64,000 bases of DNA, taken from the NCBI RefSeq assembly GCF_003018255.1, contig NZ_CP027440.1. One strand, given 5' to 3'. The notes beneath the pieces were generated by a model. That model saw only the letters and a list, made by a program, of their open reading frames with translations. It was not told the DNA's origin and searched no databases. The position numbers and the translations under genes are program-made. Shown piece after piece: positions 1-7,387 of this stretch. Numbering within the stretch: position 1 is the stretch's first letter; the number at the start of each line of letters is the position of its first letter. Source of the stretch: Escherichia coli. Its GTDB lineage: Bacteria > Pseudomonadota > Gammaproteobacteria > Enterobacterales > Enterobacteriaceae.

Positions 1-1
1 A

Positions 2-757
2 ATTATTGAGGATTTAATCGCCCGTAAGGTTAATGCAATTACAATTGTGCCAAACGATGCCAACGTGCTGGAACCGGTATTCAAAAAAGCGCGAGATGCC
101 GGAATTGTGGTTCTGACCAACGAATCCCCCGGTCAGCCAAGTGCTAACTGGGATATCGAAATCATTGATAACGAAAAATTTGCCGCTGAATATGTTGAAC
201 ATATGGCGAAACGCATGGGTGGCAAGGGCGGCTATGTGATTTACGTGGGTAGTTTGACCGTGCCGCAGCATAACTTATGGGCTGACTTGCTGGTGAAATA
301 CCAGAAAGAGCATTACCCGGATATGCATGAAGTTACCCGCCGCATGCCGGTTGCCGAGAGTGTGGATGACTCACGTCGTACCACACTGGACCTGATGAAA
401 ACCTATCCTGACTTGAAAGCGGTTGTCTCCTTTGGTTCAAACGGTCCGATTGGCGCGGGACGTGCAGTGAAAGAGAAACGGGCGAAAAATAAAGTCGCAG
501 TCTATGGCATGATGATCCCTTCACAGGCGGCATCACTGATTAAAAGTGGTGATATCACCGAAGGGATTACTTACGATCCGGCCTCTGCAGGTTACGCACT
601 CGCGGCCGTCGCCAGCACGTTGCTGAAGGGTGAAGAGATCAAACCTGGATTAGAAATGCAGAATCTCGGTAAGGCCGACGTAGATATGGATAAGCGAATT
701 ATCCGTTTCCATAAGGTATTACTGGTCAACAAAGACAATATCGACTCACTTTATTAA
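2..757 (+). CDS. periplasmic sugar-binding protein of an ABC transporter (5' partial; type I periplasmic-binding fold, RbsB/LsrB-like)
   Basis: Reading frame is open from the window edge and in frame with track ORF 47..757; followed directly by a two-domain ABC ATPase and two permeases. Confidence 0.8.
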   Translation: MIEDLIARKVNAITIVPNDANVLEPVFKKARDAGIVVLTNESPGQPSANWDIEIIDNEKFAAEYVEHMAKRMGGKGGYVIYVGSLTVPQHNLWADLLVKYQKEHYPDMHEVTRRMPVAESVDDSRRTTLDLMKTYPDLKAVVSFGSNGPIGAGRAVKEKRAKNKVAVYGMMIPSQAASLIKSGDITEGITYDPASAGYALAAVASTLLKGEEIKPGLEMQNLGKADVDMDKRIIRFHKVLLVNKDNIDSLY

Positions 758-767
758 TCCATTTCTT

Positions 768-783
768 CGGGGCGAAAGCCCCG
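768..783 (+). promoter_or_regulatory. intercistronic stem-loop (cggggcgaaagccccg) between binding-protein gene and ATPase gene
   Basis: Perfect 5-bp GC stem with a 6-nt loop seen in sequence; position typical of hairpins that stabilise the upstream binding-protein transcript. Confidence 0.4.
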
Positions 784-805
784 ATTCTTATTGCCAGGGG
801 ATGCT

Positions 806-2290
806 ATGGAAACCTTCCTTTCCCTTCGTCATATCAACAAAACGTTTCATGCCACGCGAGCGCTGCGCGATGTTTCTCTCGACTTTATGTCGGGTGAGGT
901 GCACTGCCTTGCCGGGCAAAACGGCTGTGGTAAATCGACGTTGATTAAAATTATGTCCGGTGTTTATCGCCCGGATGAGGGGGCGGAAATTACGCTTGGT
1001 GGGAAAAACTGGTCAAAGCTGACACCCGCCGCTTCGGTGGCGCAGGGGATTCAGGTGATTTATCAGGACCTCTCTTTATTTCCTAACCTGAGTGTCTGGG
1101 AGAATATCGCCGTGAATCACTATCACCACGGTCTGTTTGTTAACCGCCGTCGTCTGCGTGAGGTGGCGCAGGCGGCAATGACCAGTATTAACGTCACATT
1201 GCCACTGGATACGCTCGTTTCTGAGCTTTCAATTGCCCGCTGTCAGCTGGTGGCAATTTGCCGTGCACTGGCGCAGGACGCACGGTTGATCGTGATGGAT
1301 GAACCAACCGCTTCGCTGACCCATCAGGAAGTGCAAGGGTTATTACAGGTGGTGCATCAATTGCGGGAACGCGGGATCTGCGTGGTCTTCGTCAGTCATC
1401 GTCTGGAAGAAGTGATGGAAGTTTCCGACCGTATTTCAGTGCTGAAAGATGGTGAGCTGGTCGGGACCTTTCCGGCCGCAGAGATGACCACAAAACAACT
1501 CAGTTTTCTGATGACCGGCCAGGAGTTCGAATATCAGGTACGAGAGTTGTGGCAGGGAAAATCCAGCACCCCGGTGCTGGAGGTGCGTAATTTAAGTCGT
1601 CATGGGGAATATCAAAATATTAACTTGCGGGTGGAAGCGGGCGAAGTGGTGTCGATTGTTGGCCTGCTTGGTGCGGGGCGCACGGAATTATGTCTGAGTC
1701 TGTTTGGTATGACCCGACCGGATGCTGGTGAGATCCTCATCAACGGTCAGCCGGTTACACTGCATAGTAACCAGGACGCCATCCGCCACGGTATTGGTTA
1801 TGTTTCGGAAGATCGCATGTCGCGCGGTTTGGTGATGGCGCAATCTATTGAAGACAACATCATTAGCACTGTTTTTCACAAGGTAAAAGATCGCTTCGGC
1901 TTTCTGAGTGAAGCTAAAGTGCGTGACCTGGTGGACAGGCTAATCAAGGCATTGACCATCAAAGTCTCTGACCCACATCTCCCGGTGAATACGCTTTCCG
2001 GGGGTAACGCGCAGCGAGTATCGATCGCCAAATGGCTGGCGATTGGGCCACGACTGTTGATTCTCGATAGCCCGACTGTCGGTGTTGATATCGCCAACAA
2101 AGCAGGAATATACGGCATTATCAGCGATCTGGCGGCTCATGGCATTGCGGTATTGATGATCTGCGATGAAATTGAAGAAGCGTGGTATCAAAGCCACCGG
2201 ATTTTGGTAATGCAAAAAGGTCAGATCACCCATAGCTTCCTGCCTGACAGCAGTTCTCAGGCCAGGATTGCGGAGGTGGTAAATGGCTGA
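806..2290 (+). CDS. sugar ABC transporter ATP-binding protein with duplicated ABC domains (RbsA/XylG-like)
   Basis: Two Walker A motifs (GQNGCGKST and GLLGAGRTE) and an LSGGNAQR signature; track ORF begins at TTG 791, in-frame ATG at 806 preceded by GGGGA. Confidence 0.85.
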   Translation: METFLSLRHINKTFHATRALRDVSLDFMSGEVHCLAGQNGCGKSTLIKIMSGVYRPDEGAEITLGGKNWSKLTPAASVAQGIQVIYQDLSLFPNLSVWENIAVNHYHHGLFVNRRRLREVAQAAMTSINVTLPLDTLVSELSIARCQLVAICRALAQDARLIVMDEPTASLTHQEVQGLLQVVHQLRERGICVVFVSHRLEEVMEVSDRISVLKDGELVGTFPAAEMTTKQLSFLMTGQEFEYQVRELWQGKSSTPVLEVRNLSRHGEYQNINLRVEAGEVVSIVGLLGAGRTELCLSLFGMTRPDAGEILINGQPVTLHSNQDAIRHGIGYVSEDRMSRGLVMAQSIEDNIISTVFHKVKDRFGFLSEAKVRDLVDRLIKALTIKVSDPHLPVNTLSGGNAQRVSIAKWLAIGPRLLILDSPTVGVDIANKAGIYGIISDLAAHGIAVLMICDEIEEAWYQSHRILVMQKGQITHSFLPDSSSQARIAEVVNG

Positions 2291-3254
2291 ACTGAAAAAA
2301 CGCCATGAATTCTGGCTGGCATTACTGATTGTGGTGCTGTTTGTTGGCCTTGCCTGGCGCAGCGACGAGTTTCTGACATTCGGTAATTTGTACGATCTCG
2401 CCAATAACTATGCCATGTTGACTATTCTCGCCTGTGGTTTGTTTGTGGTGTTAATTTCCGGTGGGATTGATATTTCGTTTCCGGCAATGACCATCATTGC
2501 GCAATACGGCATGGTGCTGTTGCTGCAAAAAATTGGTGGCAACTTTGCTGTTGCGTTTGCCCTGGCGGGCGGCATCGGCATTTTACTTGGCTTAATTAAC
2601 GCCTTACTGGTTAATCGCCTACGGGTGCCTTCTATCATCATCACTATCTCGACGCTGAATATTTTCTATGGCCTGCTGTTATGGTTGAGTAAAGGTGTGT
2701 GGCTGTACGACTTTCCGCCGTGGTTTGAGCAGGGGGTTATGTTGTTCAAGTACACCGATGCTGATGGCTATGACTATGGCCTTGGTCTACCGCTGATCGC
2801 CATGATTACGGTGGTGCTGCTAACAGCGTTTATCATGAATTTCACCAGTGTAGGGCGCAAAATTTATGCCCTTGGCGGGAACCGTGAATCCGCCAGTCGC
2901 ATCGGCTTTAGTGTGCTGAAACTGCAACTTTTCGTCTATGGCTATATGGGATTGATGTCTGGTGCTGCGGGTGTAGTGCAGTCGTGGACGGTGATGACTG
3001 TCGCCCCCGATTCTCTTCTGGGTTATGAGCTGACAGTACTGGCTGCGGTGGTGCTTGGCGGCACTAGTTTGCTCGGCGGGCGCGGCACGTTAACCGGTAC
3101 TTTGCTCGGCGTGGTGTTGTTGGCAGTGATGCAAAACGGGCTAAATTTATTGGGAGTCTCGTCTTACTGGCAAACATTGATCACCGGCATCATCATCGTT
3201 GCCAGCATTAGCGCCACGGCGTGGAGTCAGCATCAGAACCGGAGTCTGCTATGA
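2283..3254 (+). CDS. sugar ABC transporter permease (RbsC/branched-chain family)
   Basis: Hydrophobic multi-TM protein; ATG 2283 lies 5 nt upstream of the ATPase stop, so the two genes overlap by 8 bp. Confidence 0.85.
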   Translation: MAELKKRHEFWLALLIVVLFVGLAWRSDEFLTFGNLYDLANNYAMLTILACGLFVVLISGGIDISFPAMTIIAQYGMVLLLQKIGGNFAVAFALAGGIGILLGLINALLVNRLRVPSIIITISTLNIFYGLLLWLSKGVWLYDFPPWFEQGVMLFKYTDADGYDYGLGLPLIAMITVVLLTAFIMNFTSVGRKIYALGGNRESASRIGFSVLKLQLFVYGYMGLMSGAAGVVQSWTVMTVAPDSLLGYELTVLAAVVLGGTSLLGGRGTLTGTLLGVVLLAVMQNGLNLLGVSSYWQTLITGIIIVASISATAWSQHQNRSLL

Positions 3255-4207
3255 AAAAATCGTGGCGTAACAACGTTGAGTTTTACTTGATCGGCCTGCT
3301 GGTGCTAACTGTTGCAGCCTTCAGCATTACTATGCCGGAGATTTTCTGGTCGATAAGTAATTTCCAGTCCGTCGCTTCGCAAATGCCCGTGCTGGGCATT
3401 CTGGCGTTGGCTATGGCGGTGACCATGCTTTGCGGTGGCATTAACTTGTCAATTATAGCCACTGCTAACGCCTGTTCACTGGTGATGGCGTGGGTGGCGA
3501 CTCAGTATCCACCGGGTATTGCTACGGTTGTCGCTACGCTGCTGGCGGGCGCTGGCGCGGCGGTGATAATCGGTTTATGTAACGGCGTATTGATTGCTGG
3601 TATTCGAGTGTCGCCAATTCTTGCAACACTCGGGATGATGACGTTGCTCAAAGGGGTAAATATTCTGGTGACAGGCGGTAGCGCCATTGCCAATTATCCC
3701 TCATGGGTGCTGTGGTTGAATCATGCACAGTGGTTCGGTATTCCGCTACCGATGTGGTTGTTTACCGCAGTGGCGCTGGGGCTGTGGATATTGCTGGAGA
3801 AAACGCCGCTCGGTAAATCCATTTATCTGATTGGTTCTAACGAACGAGCAACACTTTACTCCGGTATTAACACTCGTCGGGTGCTGATATGGGTGTATGT
3901 CATTTCCGCCTTGCTTTGTGCGGTAGCGGCATTTTTGATGATGTCGAAACTCAACTCGGCTAAGGCCTCTTATGGCGAATCGTACTTGCTGGTGTCAATC
4001 CTCGCGGCAGTACTCGGCGGGGTTAATCCGGACGGCGGCAGCGGGCGGATAATTGGTATGGTGCTGGCGCTGTTTCTTCTGCAAATTATTGAAAGCGGCT
4101 TCAATATTCTCGGTATAAGCCCCTACCTGACGATGGCCTTATGGGGAACGTTGCTGCTCTGTTTCATTCAGGCTCGCGGCATGTTAGGGCTGGATCGGGT
4201 GGTTTAA
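3251..4207 (+). CDS. sugar ABC transporter permease, second subunit
   Basis: ATGA start/stop overlap with the upstream permease at 3251-3254, GGAG 7 nt upstream; track ORF starts at GTG 3221. Confidence 0.8.
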   Translation: MKKSWRNNVEFYLIGLLVLTVAAFSITMPEIFWSISNFQSVASQMPVLGILALAMAVTMLCGGINLSIIATANACSLVMAWVATQYPPGIATVVATLLAGAGAAVIIGLCNGVLIAGIRVSPILATLGMMTLLKGVNILVTGGSAIANYPSWVLWLNHAQWFGIPLPMWLFTAVALGLWILLEKTPLGKSIYLIGSNERATLYSGINTRRVLIWVYVISALLCAVAAFLMMSKLNSAKASYGESYLLVSILAAVLGGVNPDGGSGRIIGMVLALFLLQIIESGFNILGISPYLTMALWGTLLLCFIQARGMLGLDRVV

Positions 4208-4293
4208 ATATTGGCTATATTCAATGGACGCGTTTTGCCGCGATGACATATCAGGCATCGCCAAATACACATAGCTAATCAGGAGTAAACACA

Positions 4294-5343
4294 ATGAAGA
4301 TCAAAGCTGTTGGTGCATATTCCGCTAAACAACCACTTGAACCGATGGATATCACCCGGCGTGAACCGCGACCGCATGATGTCAAAATCGAAATCGCTTA
4401 CTGTGGCGTCTGCCATTCCGATCTCCACCAGGTCCGTTCGGAGTGGGCGGGGACGGTTTACCCCTGCGTGCCGGGTCATGAAATTGTGGGGCGCGTGGTA
4501 GCTGTTGGTGATCAGGTAGAAAAATATGCGCCGGGCGATCTGGTTGGTGTCGGCTGCATTGTCGACAGTTGTAAACATTGCGAAGAGTGTGAAGACGGGC
4601 TGGAAAACTACTGTGATCACATGACCGGCACCTATAACTCGCCGACGCCGGACGAACCGGGCCATACTCTGGGCGGCTACTCACAACAGATCGTCGTTCA
4701 TGAGCGATATGTTCTGCGTATTCGTCACCCGCAAGAGCACCTGGCGGCGGTGGCTCCTTTGTTGTGTGCAGGGATCACCACATACTCGCCGCTACGTCAC
4801 TGGCAGGCCGGGCCGGGTAAAAAAGTGGGCGTGGTCGGCATCGGCGGTCTGGGACATATGGGGATCAAGCTGGCCCACGCGATGGGGGCGCATGTGGTGG
4901 CATTTACCACTTCTGAGTCAAAACGCGAAGCGGCAAAAGCCCTGGGGGCCGATGAAGTTGTTAACTCACGCAATGCCGATGAGATGGCGGCTCATCTCAA
5001 GAGTTTCGATTTCATTTTGAATACAGTAGCTGCGCCACATAATCTCGACGATTTTACCACCTTGCTGAAGCGTGATGGCACCATGACGCTGGTTGGTGCG
5101 CCTGCGACACCGCATAAATCGCCGGAAGTTTTCAACCTGATCATGAAACGCCGCGCGATAGCCGGCTCTATGATTGGCGGCATTCCAGAAACACAGGAGA
5201 TGCTCGATTTTTGCGCCGAACATGGCATCGTGGCTGATATAGAGATGATTCGGGCCGATCAAATTAATGAAGCCTATGAGCGAATGCTGCGTGGTGATGT
5301 GAAATATCGTTTTGTTATCGATAATCGCACACTAACAGACTGA
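4294..5343 (+). CDS. yahK: NADPH-dependent aldehyde reductase, zinc-type alcohol dehydrogenase family
   Basis: 349 aa; GHEIVGRV zinc-ADH motif and GxGxxG (GIGGLGHMG); AGGAGT RBS upstream; matches my recollection of E. coli YahK. Confidence 0.9.
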   Translation: MKIKAVGAYSAKQPLEPMDITRREPRPHDVKIEIAYCGVCHSDLHQVRSEWAGTVYPCVPGHEIVGRVVAVGDQVEKYAPGDLVGVGCIVDSCKHCEECEDGLENYCDHMTGTYNSPTPDEPGHTLGGYSQQIVVHERYVLRIRHPQEHLAAVAPLLCAGITTYSPLRHWQAGPGKKVGVVGIGGLGHMGIKLAHAMGAHVVAFTTSESKREAAKALGADEVVNSRNADEMAAHLKSFDFILNTVAAPHNLDDFTTLLKRDGTMTLVGAPATPHKSPEVFNLIMKRRAIAGSMIGGIPETQEMLDFCAEHGIVADIEMIRADQINEAYERMLRGDVKYRFVIDNRTLTD

Positions 5344-5778
5344 AAAAATTAATAAACATCCTGTGGTTTAACATATTAACTTCGCTCCACTTAACTTTTT
5401 AGTTAAGGAGAGCGAAATAATATCAAAGTAGTGGTAAACCTATAGCGTAAATTCAGATTGTTAAATTAACTCCACTACTTTACACGTTAGTTATGAGCGA
5501 TTTCTGATAGTGTCTGGTTTAATCAGAGCTTTATTATCTGCGACGTTTATTTTTATTTAATAGAGCCACCTGCAAGTTGTTATTCCACCAGAGAGTGAAT
5601 CGCAAAGCAGGTAATCATTTCATCTGTATATCTGTATGCCAACTGGCATTCCATCTCTTTTTTCGCCGATATTTTGTTGTGATCGGCGACACTTCGCTTA
5701 AAAAAGCATCAGCAGTGGTTTCGCAGCTATGCGGTGTATAAAAAATGATCTCATGCAGATGTTTTGTGAATGTGTGGG

Positions 5779-5806
5779 TTGACATTCATATGAAAAAAAT
5801 CATAAT
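5779..5806 (+). promoter_or_regulatory. candidate sigma70 promoter (TTGACA, 16-bp spacer, CATAAT) pointing toward yahM
   Basis: Near-consensus -35 and -10 hexamers seen in sequence inside a 620-bp AT-rich non-coding spacer. Confidence 0.3.
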
Positions 5807-5964
5807 TCCATCATGTTTGTGTGGGGTCTTTTCTGTATCTTACGCATCGCACTCAAGCCTGACAGAAAATATGCTGTAAGGCTCATATCAAAAACCGCCA
5901 TTAGCTCATCAGGAAGAGCAGACGACAACCAGGATTGTTGTATGGTACGGGGTTCGAGGCCTCG

Positions 5965-6210
5965 ATGGCGGTCCAGCTTTTCAAAACTCTTCTGAATCAG
6001 ATCCCCTTATTATCATTCCTGCAAAGTGGAACATTGCCATTGTTTGGCTATTCAGGACGGGTCAGACCAATGAAAAAAGCCCACACAGGGGAGAGTGGGC
6101 TGAAATGGGAAGCTAAAGACTCAAGTAAACTTATCGGAAATAAGGACCACGCATTACGGGGGCTATCATCGCCGATGGTCGGGATTCGGCAAATCAGGTT
6201 GATTACGTAG
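5965..6210 (+). CDS. yahM: small protein YahM
   Basis: 81-aa ORF from ATG 5965 (GAGG 7 nt upstream) inside track ORF 5935..6210 (TTG start); the 16-bp gap to the convergent yahN matches the K-12 layout as I recall it. Confidence 0.55.
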   Translation: MAVQLFKTLLNQIPLLSFLQSGTLPLFGYSGRVRPMKKAHTGESGLKWEAKDSSKLIGNKDHALRGLSSPMVGIRQIRLIT

Positions 6211-6226
6211 AGAGTAAATTATCTGC

Positions 6227-6898
6227 TCACCGCTGCGTCACCCCTTCGTAAATCAGGCGTAGCGCGAATACACCAATAATTGCACCAATAACCCGACTGG
6301 CAACGCGTTGCATACGCCCATAAGCACGACGCACTGCGGGCAAAGAAAACGCCTGACTAAGAAAAACGCGCCAGATAACTGATGCGAGCACAATCCCCGC
6401 CCAGGCCATTAAACGTGCCCATGTTGGTGTTTCGGCATTTAATGTTACTGAGAAAATACTAATAAAAAATAAAACGGTTTGCGGGTTAGAGAGATCGGTA
6501 ATTAATCCGCGACGAAAAAAGACATACCAGGGGGCGTTAATCGGTTGTTGTAGTGTGCTCATTTGCGGTGTTGACTGGCGGCGCATGCTGCACCACGCAA
6601 ACCATAAGAGATAAGCGCCGCCGACGATTCTGATAAGCGAAAAAATCTCCTCACACTGCGTAATTAGCGTTGCAAGACCAAACAAACCCAACCCGGAATA
6701 AAATGCATCGCCCAGCGCCACGCCCAGTCCGGTCAGCACTCCTGCGCGTCGACCGGAAGCCAGGCTGGTTTGTACTACCACAAAGAGATTGGCTCCCGGA
6801 TTAAAAAAAGTAATCACGAACAGTCCTACGGTCAGGTAAACGGCGTGCAAAGGATCCATAGTGATTTCATCCATAAATAAGTGAACTAACTGCATCAT
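6227..6898 (-). CDS. yahN: LysE/RhtB-family amino-acid exporter
   Basis: 223-aa hydrophobic protein matching E. coli YahN. Confidence 0.9.
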   Translation of the reverse strand: MMQLVHLFMDEITMDPLHAVYLTVGLFVITFFNPGANLFVVVQTSLASGRRAGVLTGLGVALGDAFYSGLGLFGLATLITQCEEIFSLIRIVGGAYLLWFAWCSMRRQSTPQMSTLQQPINAPWYVFFRRGLITDLSNPQTVLFFISIFSVTLNAETPTWARLMAWAGIVLASVIWRVFLSQAFSLPAVRRAYGRMQRVASRVIGAIIGVFALRLIYEGVTQR

Positions 6899-7044
6899 AT
6901 TTCTACGAAAAATAATCGGGTGCGAGAGAGATCACAAAGTGTCTTATTTCCGGTTACTGGCGTTTATGCCCTGACTGAACTAATTATTAATCAACCCAAT
7001 AATGTGGGTGGGTGATAGTGTGAAAACAACTCTGGAGCCGTAAT

Positions 7045-7320: not shown

Positions 7321-7387
7321 TTCTGAATCCTATGTAAACATCCCCGATGCGTAAGTTTATCGGTGATCATCATCTATTGAAATTTAT

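Follow-up and report, generated by a model that had tools for sequence, protein, structure and literature searches.

The window analysed here is a 64,000-nt stretch of Escherichia coli DNA that begins with four co-directional ABC transporter genes ahead of yahK. This locus raises two questions: what the transporter imports, and whether the strains that carry it gained an island or the others lost an old locus. The open reading frames and elements at the start of the window are as follows.

1-757, plus strand: 3' part of aauA, encoding residues 77-327 of the 327-aa periplasmic substrate-binding protein
767-792, plus strand: GC-rich hairpin TCGGGGCGAAAGCCCCGA (767-784) with a T-rich tail, in the aauA-aauB spacer
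806-2290, plus strand: aauB, fused double-domain ABC ATPase of 494 aa; intact, two ABC_tran domains (E=4.5e-55)
2283-3254, plus strand: aauC, permease 1 of 323 aa; intact, BPD_transp_2 (E=4.6e-34)
3251-4207, plus strand: aauD, permease 2 of 318 aa; intact, BPD_transp_2 (E=2.4e-31)
4136-4207, plus strand: 3' end of aauD (72 bp), left behind as a scar in K-12 and roughly half of complete genomes
4294-5343, plus strand: yahK, NADPH-dependent aldehyde reductase; conserved right flank, outside the variable segment

Identity of the transporter and its substrate

We assign the segment, with a probability of about 93%, to aauABCD, which encodes the CUT2-type ABC importer known as the Accessory L-arabinose Uptake system and corresponds to Z0415-Z0419 on O-island 17 of EHEC. 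AauA, which carries a Peripla_BP_4 domain (Pfam, E=4.5e-63), differs in 1 of 327 residues from PDB 9I1M, a structure of AauA bound to D-ribulose (E=1.8e-213), and the paper that deposited 9I1M names the protein AauA of EHEC (PMC12307932). The gene order (substrate-binding protein, fused ATPase, two permeases) and the location between yahJ and yahK are those of Aau on OI-17, where the locus Z0415-9 has been described (PMC11127945). AauB possesses two Walker A motifs (GQNGCGKS and GLLGAGRT), the signature LSGGN and the Walker B motif LIVMDE, with LLILDS at the Walker B position of the second domain, where Ser in place of Glu would make the ATP site degenerate.

The first-pass annotation regarded the substrate as unknown, a statement that is outdated. 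By isothermal titration calorimetry, AauA binds D-ribulose with a Kd of 1.98 µM and L-arabinose with a Kd of 598 µM; its crystal structure contains D-ribulose, its expression is AraC-dependent and induced by L-arabinose, and the use of D-ribulose requires AraB (PMC12307932). All six D-ribulose contacts listed in that paper (K37, W43, E118, H167, E196, S223) are kept. Four of them (E118, H167, E196, S223) are encoded in the window, and K37 and W43, just upstream, were read from a 99.9%-identical locus, L001. By analogy with the published binding protein, which differs by one residue, the allele in the window would work as follows. Periplasmic AauA would bind alpha-D-ribulose (Kd about 2 µM, with L-arabinose bound about 300-fold more weakly) and hand the sugar to the AauC/AauD permease, with AauB, the fused two-domain ATPase, supplying the energy. 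AraC and L-arabinose would be needed for transcription of aau, and the imported D-ribulose would be phosphorylated by the L-ribulokinase AraB and enter the pentose phosphate pathway. Since the substrate, structure, regulation and gut-colonization role of Aau are already known from two papers (Cottam et al. 2024, PMC11127945; 2025, PMC12307932), the assignment carries no functional novelty.

Two other substrates have names or scores on their side. A main role in accessory L-arabinose uptake, after which Aau was first named and which would add scavenging capacity to AraE and AraFGH, would agree with its induction only by L-arabinose via AraC, with the small growth gain that its overexpression gives an araE mutant (PMC11127945; PMC12307932), and with the NCBIfam comparison, in which AauB scores highest against AraG and AauC against AraH. 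These scores, however, fall far below the equivalog cut-offs (425 bits vs 689 for AraG, 157 vs 378 for AraH); AauB matches the AraG, YtfR, XylG, RbsA and LsrA models at E of about 1e-112 to 1e-127, none of them reaching the cut-off. Together with the affinity difference and the bound ligand given above, this makes the L-arabinose reading improbable. The binding protein was also described as LsrB/RbsB-like, which is correct at the level of fold and superfamily: LsrB structures are detectable as relatives of AauA (E of about 1e-21 to 1e-24; the match with 5GTA is weak at E=8.5e-24 and 88 bits), and the two systems share the fold class of the periplasmic binding protein, the CUT2 ABC architecture and structurally equivalent ligand-contact positions. 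The PGAP product name, 'autoinducer 2 ABC transporter substrate-binding protein', likewise points to an autoinducer-2 importer of the LsrB type, and import of ribose or rhamnose belongs to the same class of proposals. At the family level the likeness does not hold, as the model cut-offs are 384 bits for LsrB, 342 for RhaS and 337 for RbsB, and AauA reaches 111, 137 and 46 bits, respectively. The criteria for LsrB proteins, as quoted in PMC3386761, are an identity above 63% to the S. Typhimurium protein and the presence of all six AI-2 residues; at the positions of K35, D116, D166, Q167, P220 and A222, AauA has K, E, Q, H, F and S, so that one of six is kept. D-ribose gives a thermal shift of only 2 °C (PMC12307932), and the neighbors of aau are yahJ, an ASCH-domain gene and yahK, with none of lsrK, lsrR, lsrF or lsrG nearby. 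We therefore rejected membership in LsrB, RbsB and RhaS on family cut-offs and binding-site residues, and give an autoinducer-2, ribose or rhamnose importer almost no weight. Among the remaining NCBIfam models compared with AauA, AlsB reached 49 bits against a cut-off of 335 and AraF gave no match.

Junctions and candidate regulatory elements

The segment was first taken for a complete operon with overlapping start/stop junctions. The four genes ahead of yahK are there, and two of the three junctions do overlap: aauB and aauC share 8 nt (2283-2290), and aauC and aauD share the 4-nt ATGA (3251-3254). The aauA and aauB genes, on the other hand, are separated by a 48-nt spacer, and the operon is incomplete within the window because the aauA start falls 227 nt before position 1. 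Codons 1-76 of aauA, its signal peptide and the promoter thus lie outside the window; the full gene corresponds to positions 14774-15757 of L001.

The hairpin in the aauA-aauB spacer has a 7-pair stem with 6 GC pairs and is the sole intergenic terminator-like site on the plus strand; none was found between aauD and yahK. From its sequence, it is probably a partial terminator or an mRNA-stabilizing element that would lift the output of the binding protein over that of the membrane components. No convincing sigma-70 promoter was detected inside the operon or between aauD and yahK, where the counts of the promoter scan did not exceed those in shuffled sequences, and an Rfam scan of window positions 1-7000 gave no match at the gathering score. 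Upstream of aauA, L001 contains a direct repeat, TGCCCGTTTTGTCCATA-N4-TAACCAAATTTTTAATA, that resembles the AraC I1/I2 motif and represents a putative AraC site; this site and the promoter are assigned by motif resemblance and conservation. Compared by eye, the block that holds it is seemingly unchanged between E. coli and a divergent Escherichia locus of about 90% identity (L031).

The yahJ-yahK site in carriers and non-carriers

The suggestion that the segment is strain-variable was confirmed. Among the complete E. coli genomes, 5426 in all, 2212 (about 41%) count as carriers, defined as having at least 80% of the segment, and K-12 MG1655 has no such operon at this position. The accompanying view, that K-12 carries yahF-yahJ here instead and that the segment is a replacement, had to be corrected: carriers have yahD-yahJ immediately upstream, followed by the ASCH gene and then aau. 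The difference between yahJ and yahK is presence or absence, with no replacement. What the present analysis adds is this correction and an examination of the empty site of K-12, which proved to be a deletion scar.

Non-carriers match the segment only at positions 4136-4207, at 98.6-100%, and position 4136 marks the right-hand deletion breakpoint. In K-12, the spacer between yahJ and yahK is 376 bp long and includes two gene ends, 72 bp from the 3' end of aauD and ~50 bp from that of the ASCH gene. The aauD remnant, annotated by PGAP as an incomplete CDS without an N-terminus, translates to LWGTLLLCFIQARGMLGLDRVV and a stop, identical to the AauD C-terminus; the ASCH remnant likewise translates to the C-terminus of the ASCH protein. 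Because the spacer retains these gene ends, K-12 represents the deleted state. A base-by-base comparison of K-12 with the uropathogenic strain EcPF18 revealed identical breakpoints, and the scar is 96.1% identical between them, similar to the flanking genes (94.5-97.8%). The same contiguous K-12-type spacer occurs in 2760 of the 5426 complete genomes (about 51%). This empty site would have resulted from two old deletions; one would have taken most of the ASCH-domain gene, and the other would have run from the aau promoter into aauD, up to codon ~295.

Outside the common E. coli alleles, L031 (strain SCPM-O-B-8794) shows aauABCD and yahK in collinear order; over its 11.7 kb no complete E. coli genome matches above 90%. 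Its aau genes show 91.0-93.4% identity and its flanking genes 86.5-93.5%. As the aau-yahK region has diverged about as much as its flanks, the locus looks ancestral rather than a recent island. The scars, together with the synteny in this one outgroup genome, whose species is uncertain, lead us to infer that aau was present ancestrally and was probably lost repeatedly. More specifically, we lean, at somewhat better than even odds, towards a scenario in which aauABCD and the ASCH gene already stood beside yahK before E. coli split from the ~90%-identical Escherichia lineage. The empty site would have arisen once, by the two deletions; both alleles would since have formed an old polymorphism reshuffled by recombination, and the acquisition of OI-17 would be an artefact of comparison with K-12. 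If so, the enrichment of aau in LEE-positive lineages reflects retention, not acquisition.

The opposite view, which is that of the published work and comes close to the accessory segment of the first-pass annotation, takes the segment for recently acquired pathogenicity-island cargo that EHEC-type lineages received at a previously naive site between yahJ and yahK. In its favor, the literature lists the locus as O-island 17, regards it as horizontally acquired and finds it enriched, with LEE, in phylogroups B1 and E (PMC11127945). The AauA family is also patchily distributed across Enterobacterales, Pasteurellaceae, Vibrio and Aeromonas. The sampled empty sites are nevertheless not naive, since in K-12 and EcPF18 they retain the ends of aauD and of the ASCH gene, cut at identical positions, and the scar is contiguous in the 2760 genomes; moreover, aau and yahK join in L031 as they do in E. 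coli, at a divergence like that of core genes. Nor are there signs of mobility: the annotated flanks contain no integrase, IS or tRNA, no flanking direct repeats or att-like repeats were found, and the GC content of aau (48-52%) is not anomalous against 52% for the whole window. We consider recent acquisition unlikely, although an older horizontal acquisition is still likely because the family is patchy outside Escherichia. The scar thus bears on how Aau is labeled, as an acquired pathogenicity-island gene or as an ancestral metabolic trait lost in many commensal and extraintestinal lineages.

A 25-nt imperfect inverted repeat (L001 13761-13785 and 19136-19160, 76% complementary) has one arm that starts exactly at the right breakpoint. 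It was set aside, as it depends on a 10-nt seed with the palindrome AACGTT, and chance pairs of this kind are expected by estimate in 5.7 kb, where 11 pairs were reported.

Relatives of aau and the allele in the window

The aauC gene of the window has four private substitutions, M84I in AauC and three more that are clustered, in comparison with 2217 other carriers. In the genome collection, which does not include the strain of the window itself, the closest match is a Japanese clinical isolate, over the first ~7 kb only. O157 genomes show 98.2-98.3% DNA identity to positions 1-4207. The aauB gene is intact here; in EDL933/TUV93-0, by contrast, Aau is reported to be non-functional, and its ATPase carries two annotations, Z0416 and Z0417 (PMC11127945).

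Among the best 80 AauA loci, there were no named Escherichia except E. coli and no Salmonella, which is indirect evidence for the yahJ-yahK junction of E. albertii, E. fergusonii and the named cryptic clades, and the closest relatives outside Escherichia belong to Franconibacter, Klebsiella pneumoniae and Mangrovibacter (90-92%). A related system is Rbl, the D-ribulose utilization locus of Citrobacter rodentium (ROD_24811-61), which resembles Aau in its four-gene ABC architecture and likewise takes D-ribulose as its substrate. Unlike Aau, Rbl includes a D-ribulokinase and is D-ribulose-responsive; neither a kinase nor a regulator gene lies next to aau, and the system relies on AraC and AraB (PMC12307932). 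Loci of ~60% identity (e.g., L064 of Citrobacter amalonaticus) combine the aau gene order with a downstream ORF of ~546 aa at the position that the kinase takes in Rbl.

The full aauABCD cassette is found in K. pneumoniae ATCC 13883 in another genomic context, with no yahK neighbor. A close AauA ortholog from this species is PDB 3D02 (phmmer E=3.6e-188 for the mature protein, 92% identity by tblastn), which was deposited under the misnomer 'putative LacI-type transcriptional regulator'. Both this name and the autoinducer 2 product name in RefSeq are misleading for members of this family.

Gene content and identity of the transporter

Window positions 1-4207 contain four co-directional genes followed by yahK:

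1-757, plus strand: in-window part of aauA, binding protein; the frame runs off the left window edge
806-2290, plus strand: aauB, ATPase of 494 aa with two ABC_tran domains
2283-3254, plus strand: aauC, permease (BPD_transp_2)
3251-4207, plus strand: aauD, permease (BPD_transp_2)
4294-5343, plus strand: yahK, downstream of aauD

The reading frames of aauB, aauC and aauD are all intact. The first-pass annotation described a complete operon with overlapping junctions ahead of yahK. Its gene order stands, as do two overlaps, of 8 nt (aauB/aauC) and 4 nt (aauC/aauD, ATGA); the aauA-aauB junction is instead a 48-nt spacer, and aauA is cut by the window edge, so that only residues 77-327 are encoded in the window, while the signal peptide and promoter lie outside. 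In the best-matching complete genome, E. coli JNEC-KY177 (locus L001; 99.9% identity to window 1-6000), aauA (L001 14774-15757) starts 227 nt before window position 1. No terminator-like site was found ahead of yahK, and a search of window 1-7000 against Rfam gave no matches. The aauA-aauB spacer contains, at 767-792, a strong GC-rich hairpin (TCGGGGCGAAAGCCCCGA) that ends in a T-rich tail. It probably acts within the operon as an attenuator or stabiliser, fixing how much binding protein is made relative to the membrane components.

AauA differs by a single residue (D200V; E=1.8e-213) from PDB chain 9I1M_A, the binding protein of the EHEC Accessory L-arabinose Uptake (Aau) transporter (Cottam et al., Nat Commun 2025, PMC12307932). 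The Aau locus, on O-island 17, comprises Z0415 (binding protein), Z0416-7 (ATPase) and Z0418/Z0419 (permeases) (PMC11127945). AauA binds D-ribulose with a Kd of 1.98 µM versus 598 µM for L-arabinose, its alpha-D-ribulose ligand is held by Lys37, Trp43, Glu118, His167, Glu196 and Ser223, and AraB is required for phosphorylation of the imported D-ribulose (PMC12307932). All six contact residues are kept in the window allele, four of them encoded in the window; K37 and W43 precede position 1 and were taken from L001. Given the one-residue match, the published Aau data and the conserved contacts, the function and mechanism of the operon are already known and are taken here from the literature. The operon is real, and its function, structure and population distribution have been characterised; the earlier statement that the substrate is unknown is out of date.

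AauA shares its fold and transporter class with LsrB and RbsB, but not its family, and the initial description as LsrB/RbsB-like holds only to that extent. Its scores fall far below the model cut-offs for LsrB (111 vs 384 bits), RhaS (137 vs 342) and RbsB (46 vs 337). Functional LsrB receptors are defined by six AI-2 residues, K35, D116, D166, Q167, P220 and A222 (PMC3386761), whose AauA counterparts in an alignment with the LsrB structure 5GTA are K, E, Q, H, F and S. No lsr accessory genes are present in the aau neighbourhood of L001. Despite the failure of the LsrB model, the RefSeq name of AauA is 'autoinducer 2 ABC transporter substrate-binding protein'. The structure of the Klebsiella orthologue (PDB 3D02) is titled 'putative LacI-type transcriptional regulator'.

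In the second domain of AauB, residues 417-424 (LLILDSPT, window 2054-2077) have Ser where the catalytic Glu follows Walker B. Of 79 Aau/Rbl-family homologues, 77 have Ser (or Ala) in place of this Glu, and the signature motif of the first domain is degenerate too (LSIARCQ); on these grounds the family appears to combine a canonical ATP site with a degenerate one.

Strain distribution and the K-12 spacer

The operon is strain-variable, as first proposed: at least 80% of window 1-4207 is present in 2212 of 5426 complete E. coli genomes (41%; identity 98.2-99.9%), and the operon is absent from K-12 MG1655. Among sampled matches from the ∼2500 other genomes with any match, only 4136-4207 is aligned (4146-4207 in the weakest). 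The order in carriers is yahD, yahE, fdrA (yahF), yahG, yahI, yahJ, an ASCH-domain gene, aauABCD and yahK, whereas K-12 has yahD-yahJ, a 376-bp spacer and yahK. The proposal that K-12 carries yahF-yahJ instead, making the operon a replacement segment, thus fails, since carriers hold yahD-yahJ as well; in K-12 the transporter and the ASCH gene are simply absent, with no substitution.

Aligned to the carrier sequence, the K-12 spacer falls into three blocks:

Block 1: the end of yahJ and a further 61 bp
Block 2: 70 bp, of which 48 bp are the 3' end of the ASCH gene and 22 bp lie downstream of it; translation EMDIIFEEYALIDVV-stop, vs EMDVIFEEYALIDVV-stop in the intact gene
Block 3: the terminal 72 bp of aauD together with the aauD-yahK spacer; translation LWGTLLLCFIQARGMLGLDRVV-stop, equal to the AauD C-terminus

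By this alignment the K-12 state is a deletion, with two events accounting for the spacer. One removed ∼0.6 kb that includes the 5' portion of the ASCH gene; the other removed ∼4.5 kb, beginning ∼160 bp ahead of aauA and ending at window position 4135. The breakpoints are shared by the uropathogenic isolate EcPF18, whose aauD remnant is annotated by PGAP as an incomplete CDS. The K-12-type junction occurs as one contiguous match in 2760 genomes (51%; identity 95-100%); the other states, among them an IS1-associated deletion that spans yahE to yahK, make up ∼8%. Divergence of the scar between K-12 and EcPF18 (3.9%) is within the range of the flanking genes (94.5-97.8% identity), which makes the scar an old one.

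Upstream of aauA, about 350-385 nt before window position 1, is a putative AraC I1/I2-like direct repeat, TGCCCGTTTTGTCCATA-N4-TAACCAAATTTTTAATA (L001 14617-14654), proposed from motif resemblance. The block holding it looks unchanged by eye between E. coli and L031, a ∼90%-identical divergent Escherichia locus, and the K-12 deletion begins just upstream of the repeat.

Ancestry of the locus

AauA was scanned against one genome per GTDB species, and the top 80 loci were considered. The four-gene cassette is present in many Enterobacterales, Pasteurellaceae, Vibrio and Aeromonas; among these loci it adjoins yahK only in L031, from a record titled E. coli strain SCPM-O-B-8794. The 11.7-kb pdeL-prpR segment of L031 has no match above 90% in any complete E. 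coli genome, and L031 is therefore assigned to a divergent Escherichia lineage. Its aauABCD-yahK region is collinear with that of E. coli, and identity in the aau genes (91.0-93.4%) is similar to that in pdeL, yahK, yahM, yahN, yahO and prpR (86.5-93.5%). Homology starts within the 3' end of the ASCH gene, and this breakpoint is unlike that of K-12. In L031 7681-10000, the yahB-yahJ block is missing in its entirety, and an ASCH remnant of ∼100 bp, immediately ahead of aauA, adjoins pdeL.

The aau genes have a GC content of 48-52%, versus 52% for the window, and neither mobility genes nor flanking direct repeats were found at the locus boundaries. We infer that aau already stood beside yahK before E. 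coli diversified and was later lost by deletion. If so, the published 'horizontally acquired' label would reflect comparison with K-12; the words 'remnant' and 'ancestral' are absent from the 2024 paper (PMC11127945). An older horizontal origin of aau is likely, because the top 80 loci include no named Escherichia besides E. coli and no Salmonella, and the nearest AauA relatives among them are from Franconibacter, Klebsiella pneumoniae and Mangrovibacter (90-92%). The scar and ancestry argument is the sole addition made here and is of modest interest. A 4.7-kb contig of a 'Bacteroidales' MAG (SFEK01000152.1) encodes aauABCD with 99-100% identity to E. coli; it almost certainly derives from contaminating E. 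coli DNA that was binned with the MAG.

Other variation near the operon

Over its first 7 kb, the window departs from the closest genome at just four sites, clustered third-codon-position changes in aauC, all to T (2534, 2552, 2597 and 2630; M84I and three synonymous). None of 2217 carriers exceeds 98.5% identity across 2480-2680, and the cluster could be a private variant patch or a sequence error. The 99.9% identity to JNEC-KY177 continues until about 7140, in yahO, and is followed by differences and an indel near 7372, a pattern that suggests a recombination mosaic. Finally, yahL is absent from the yahK-yahM junction at 5565-5566, where K-12 has 835 extra bp with the 816-bp yahL and L031 has 964 bp; this junction is another presence/absence polymorphism, lying 1.3 kb from aau and opposite in state to K-12.
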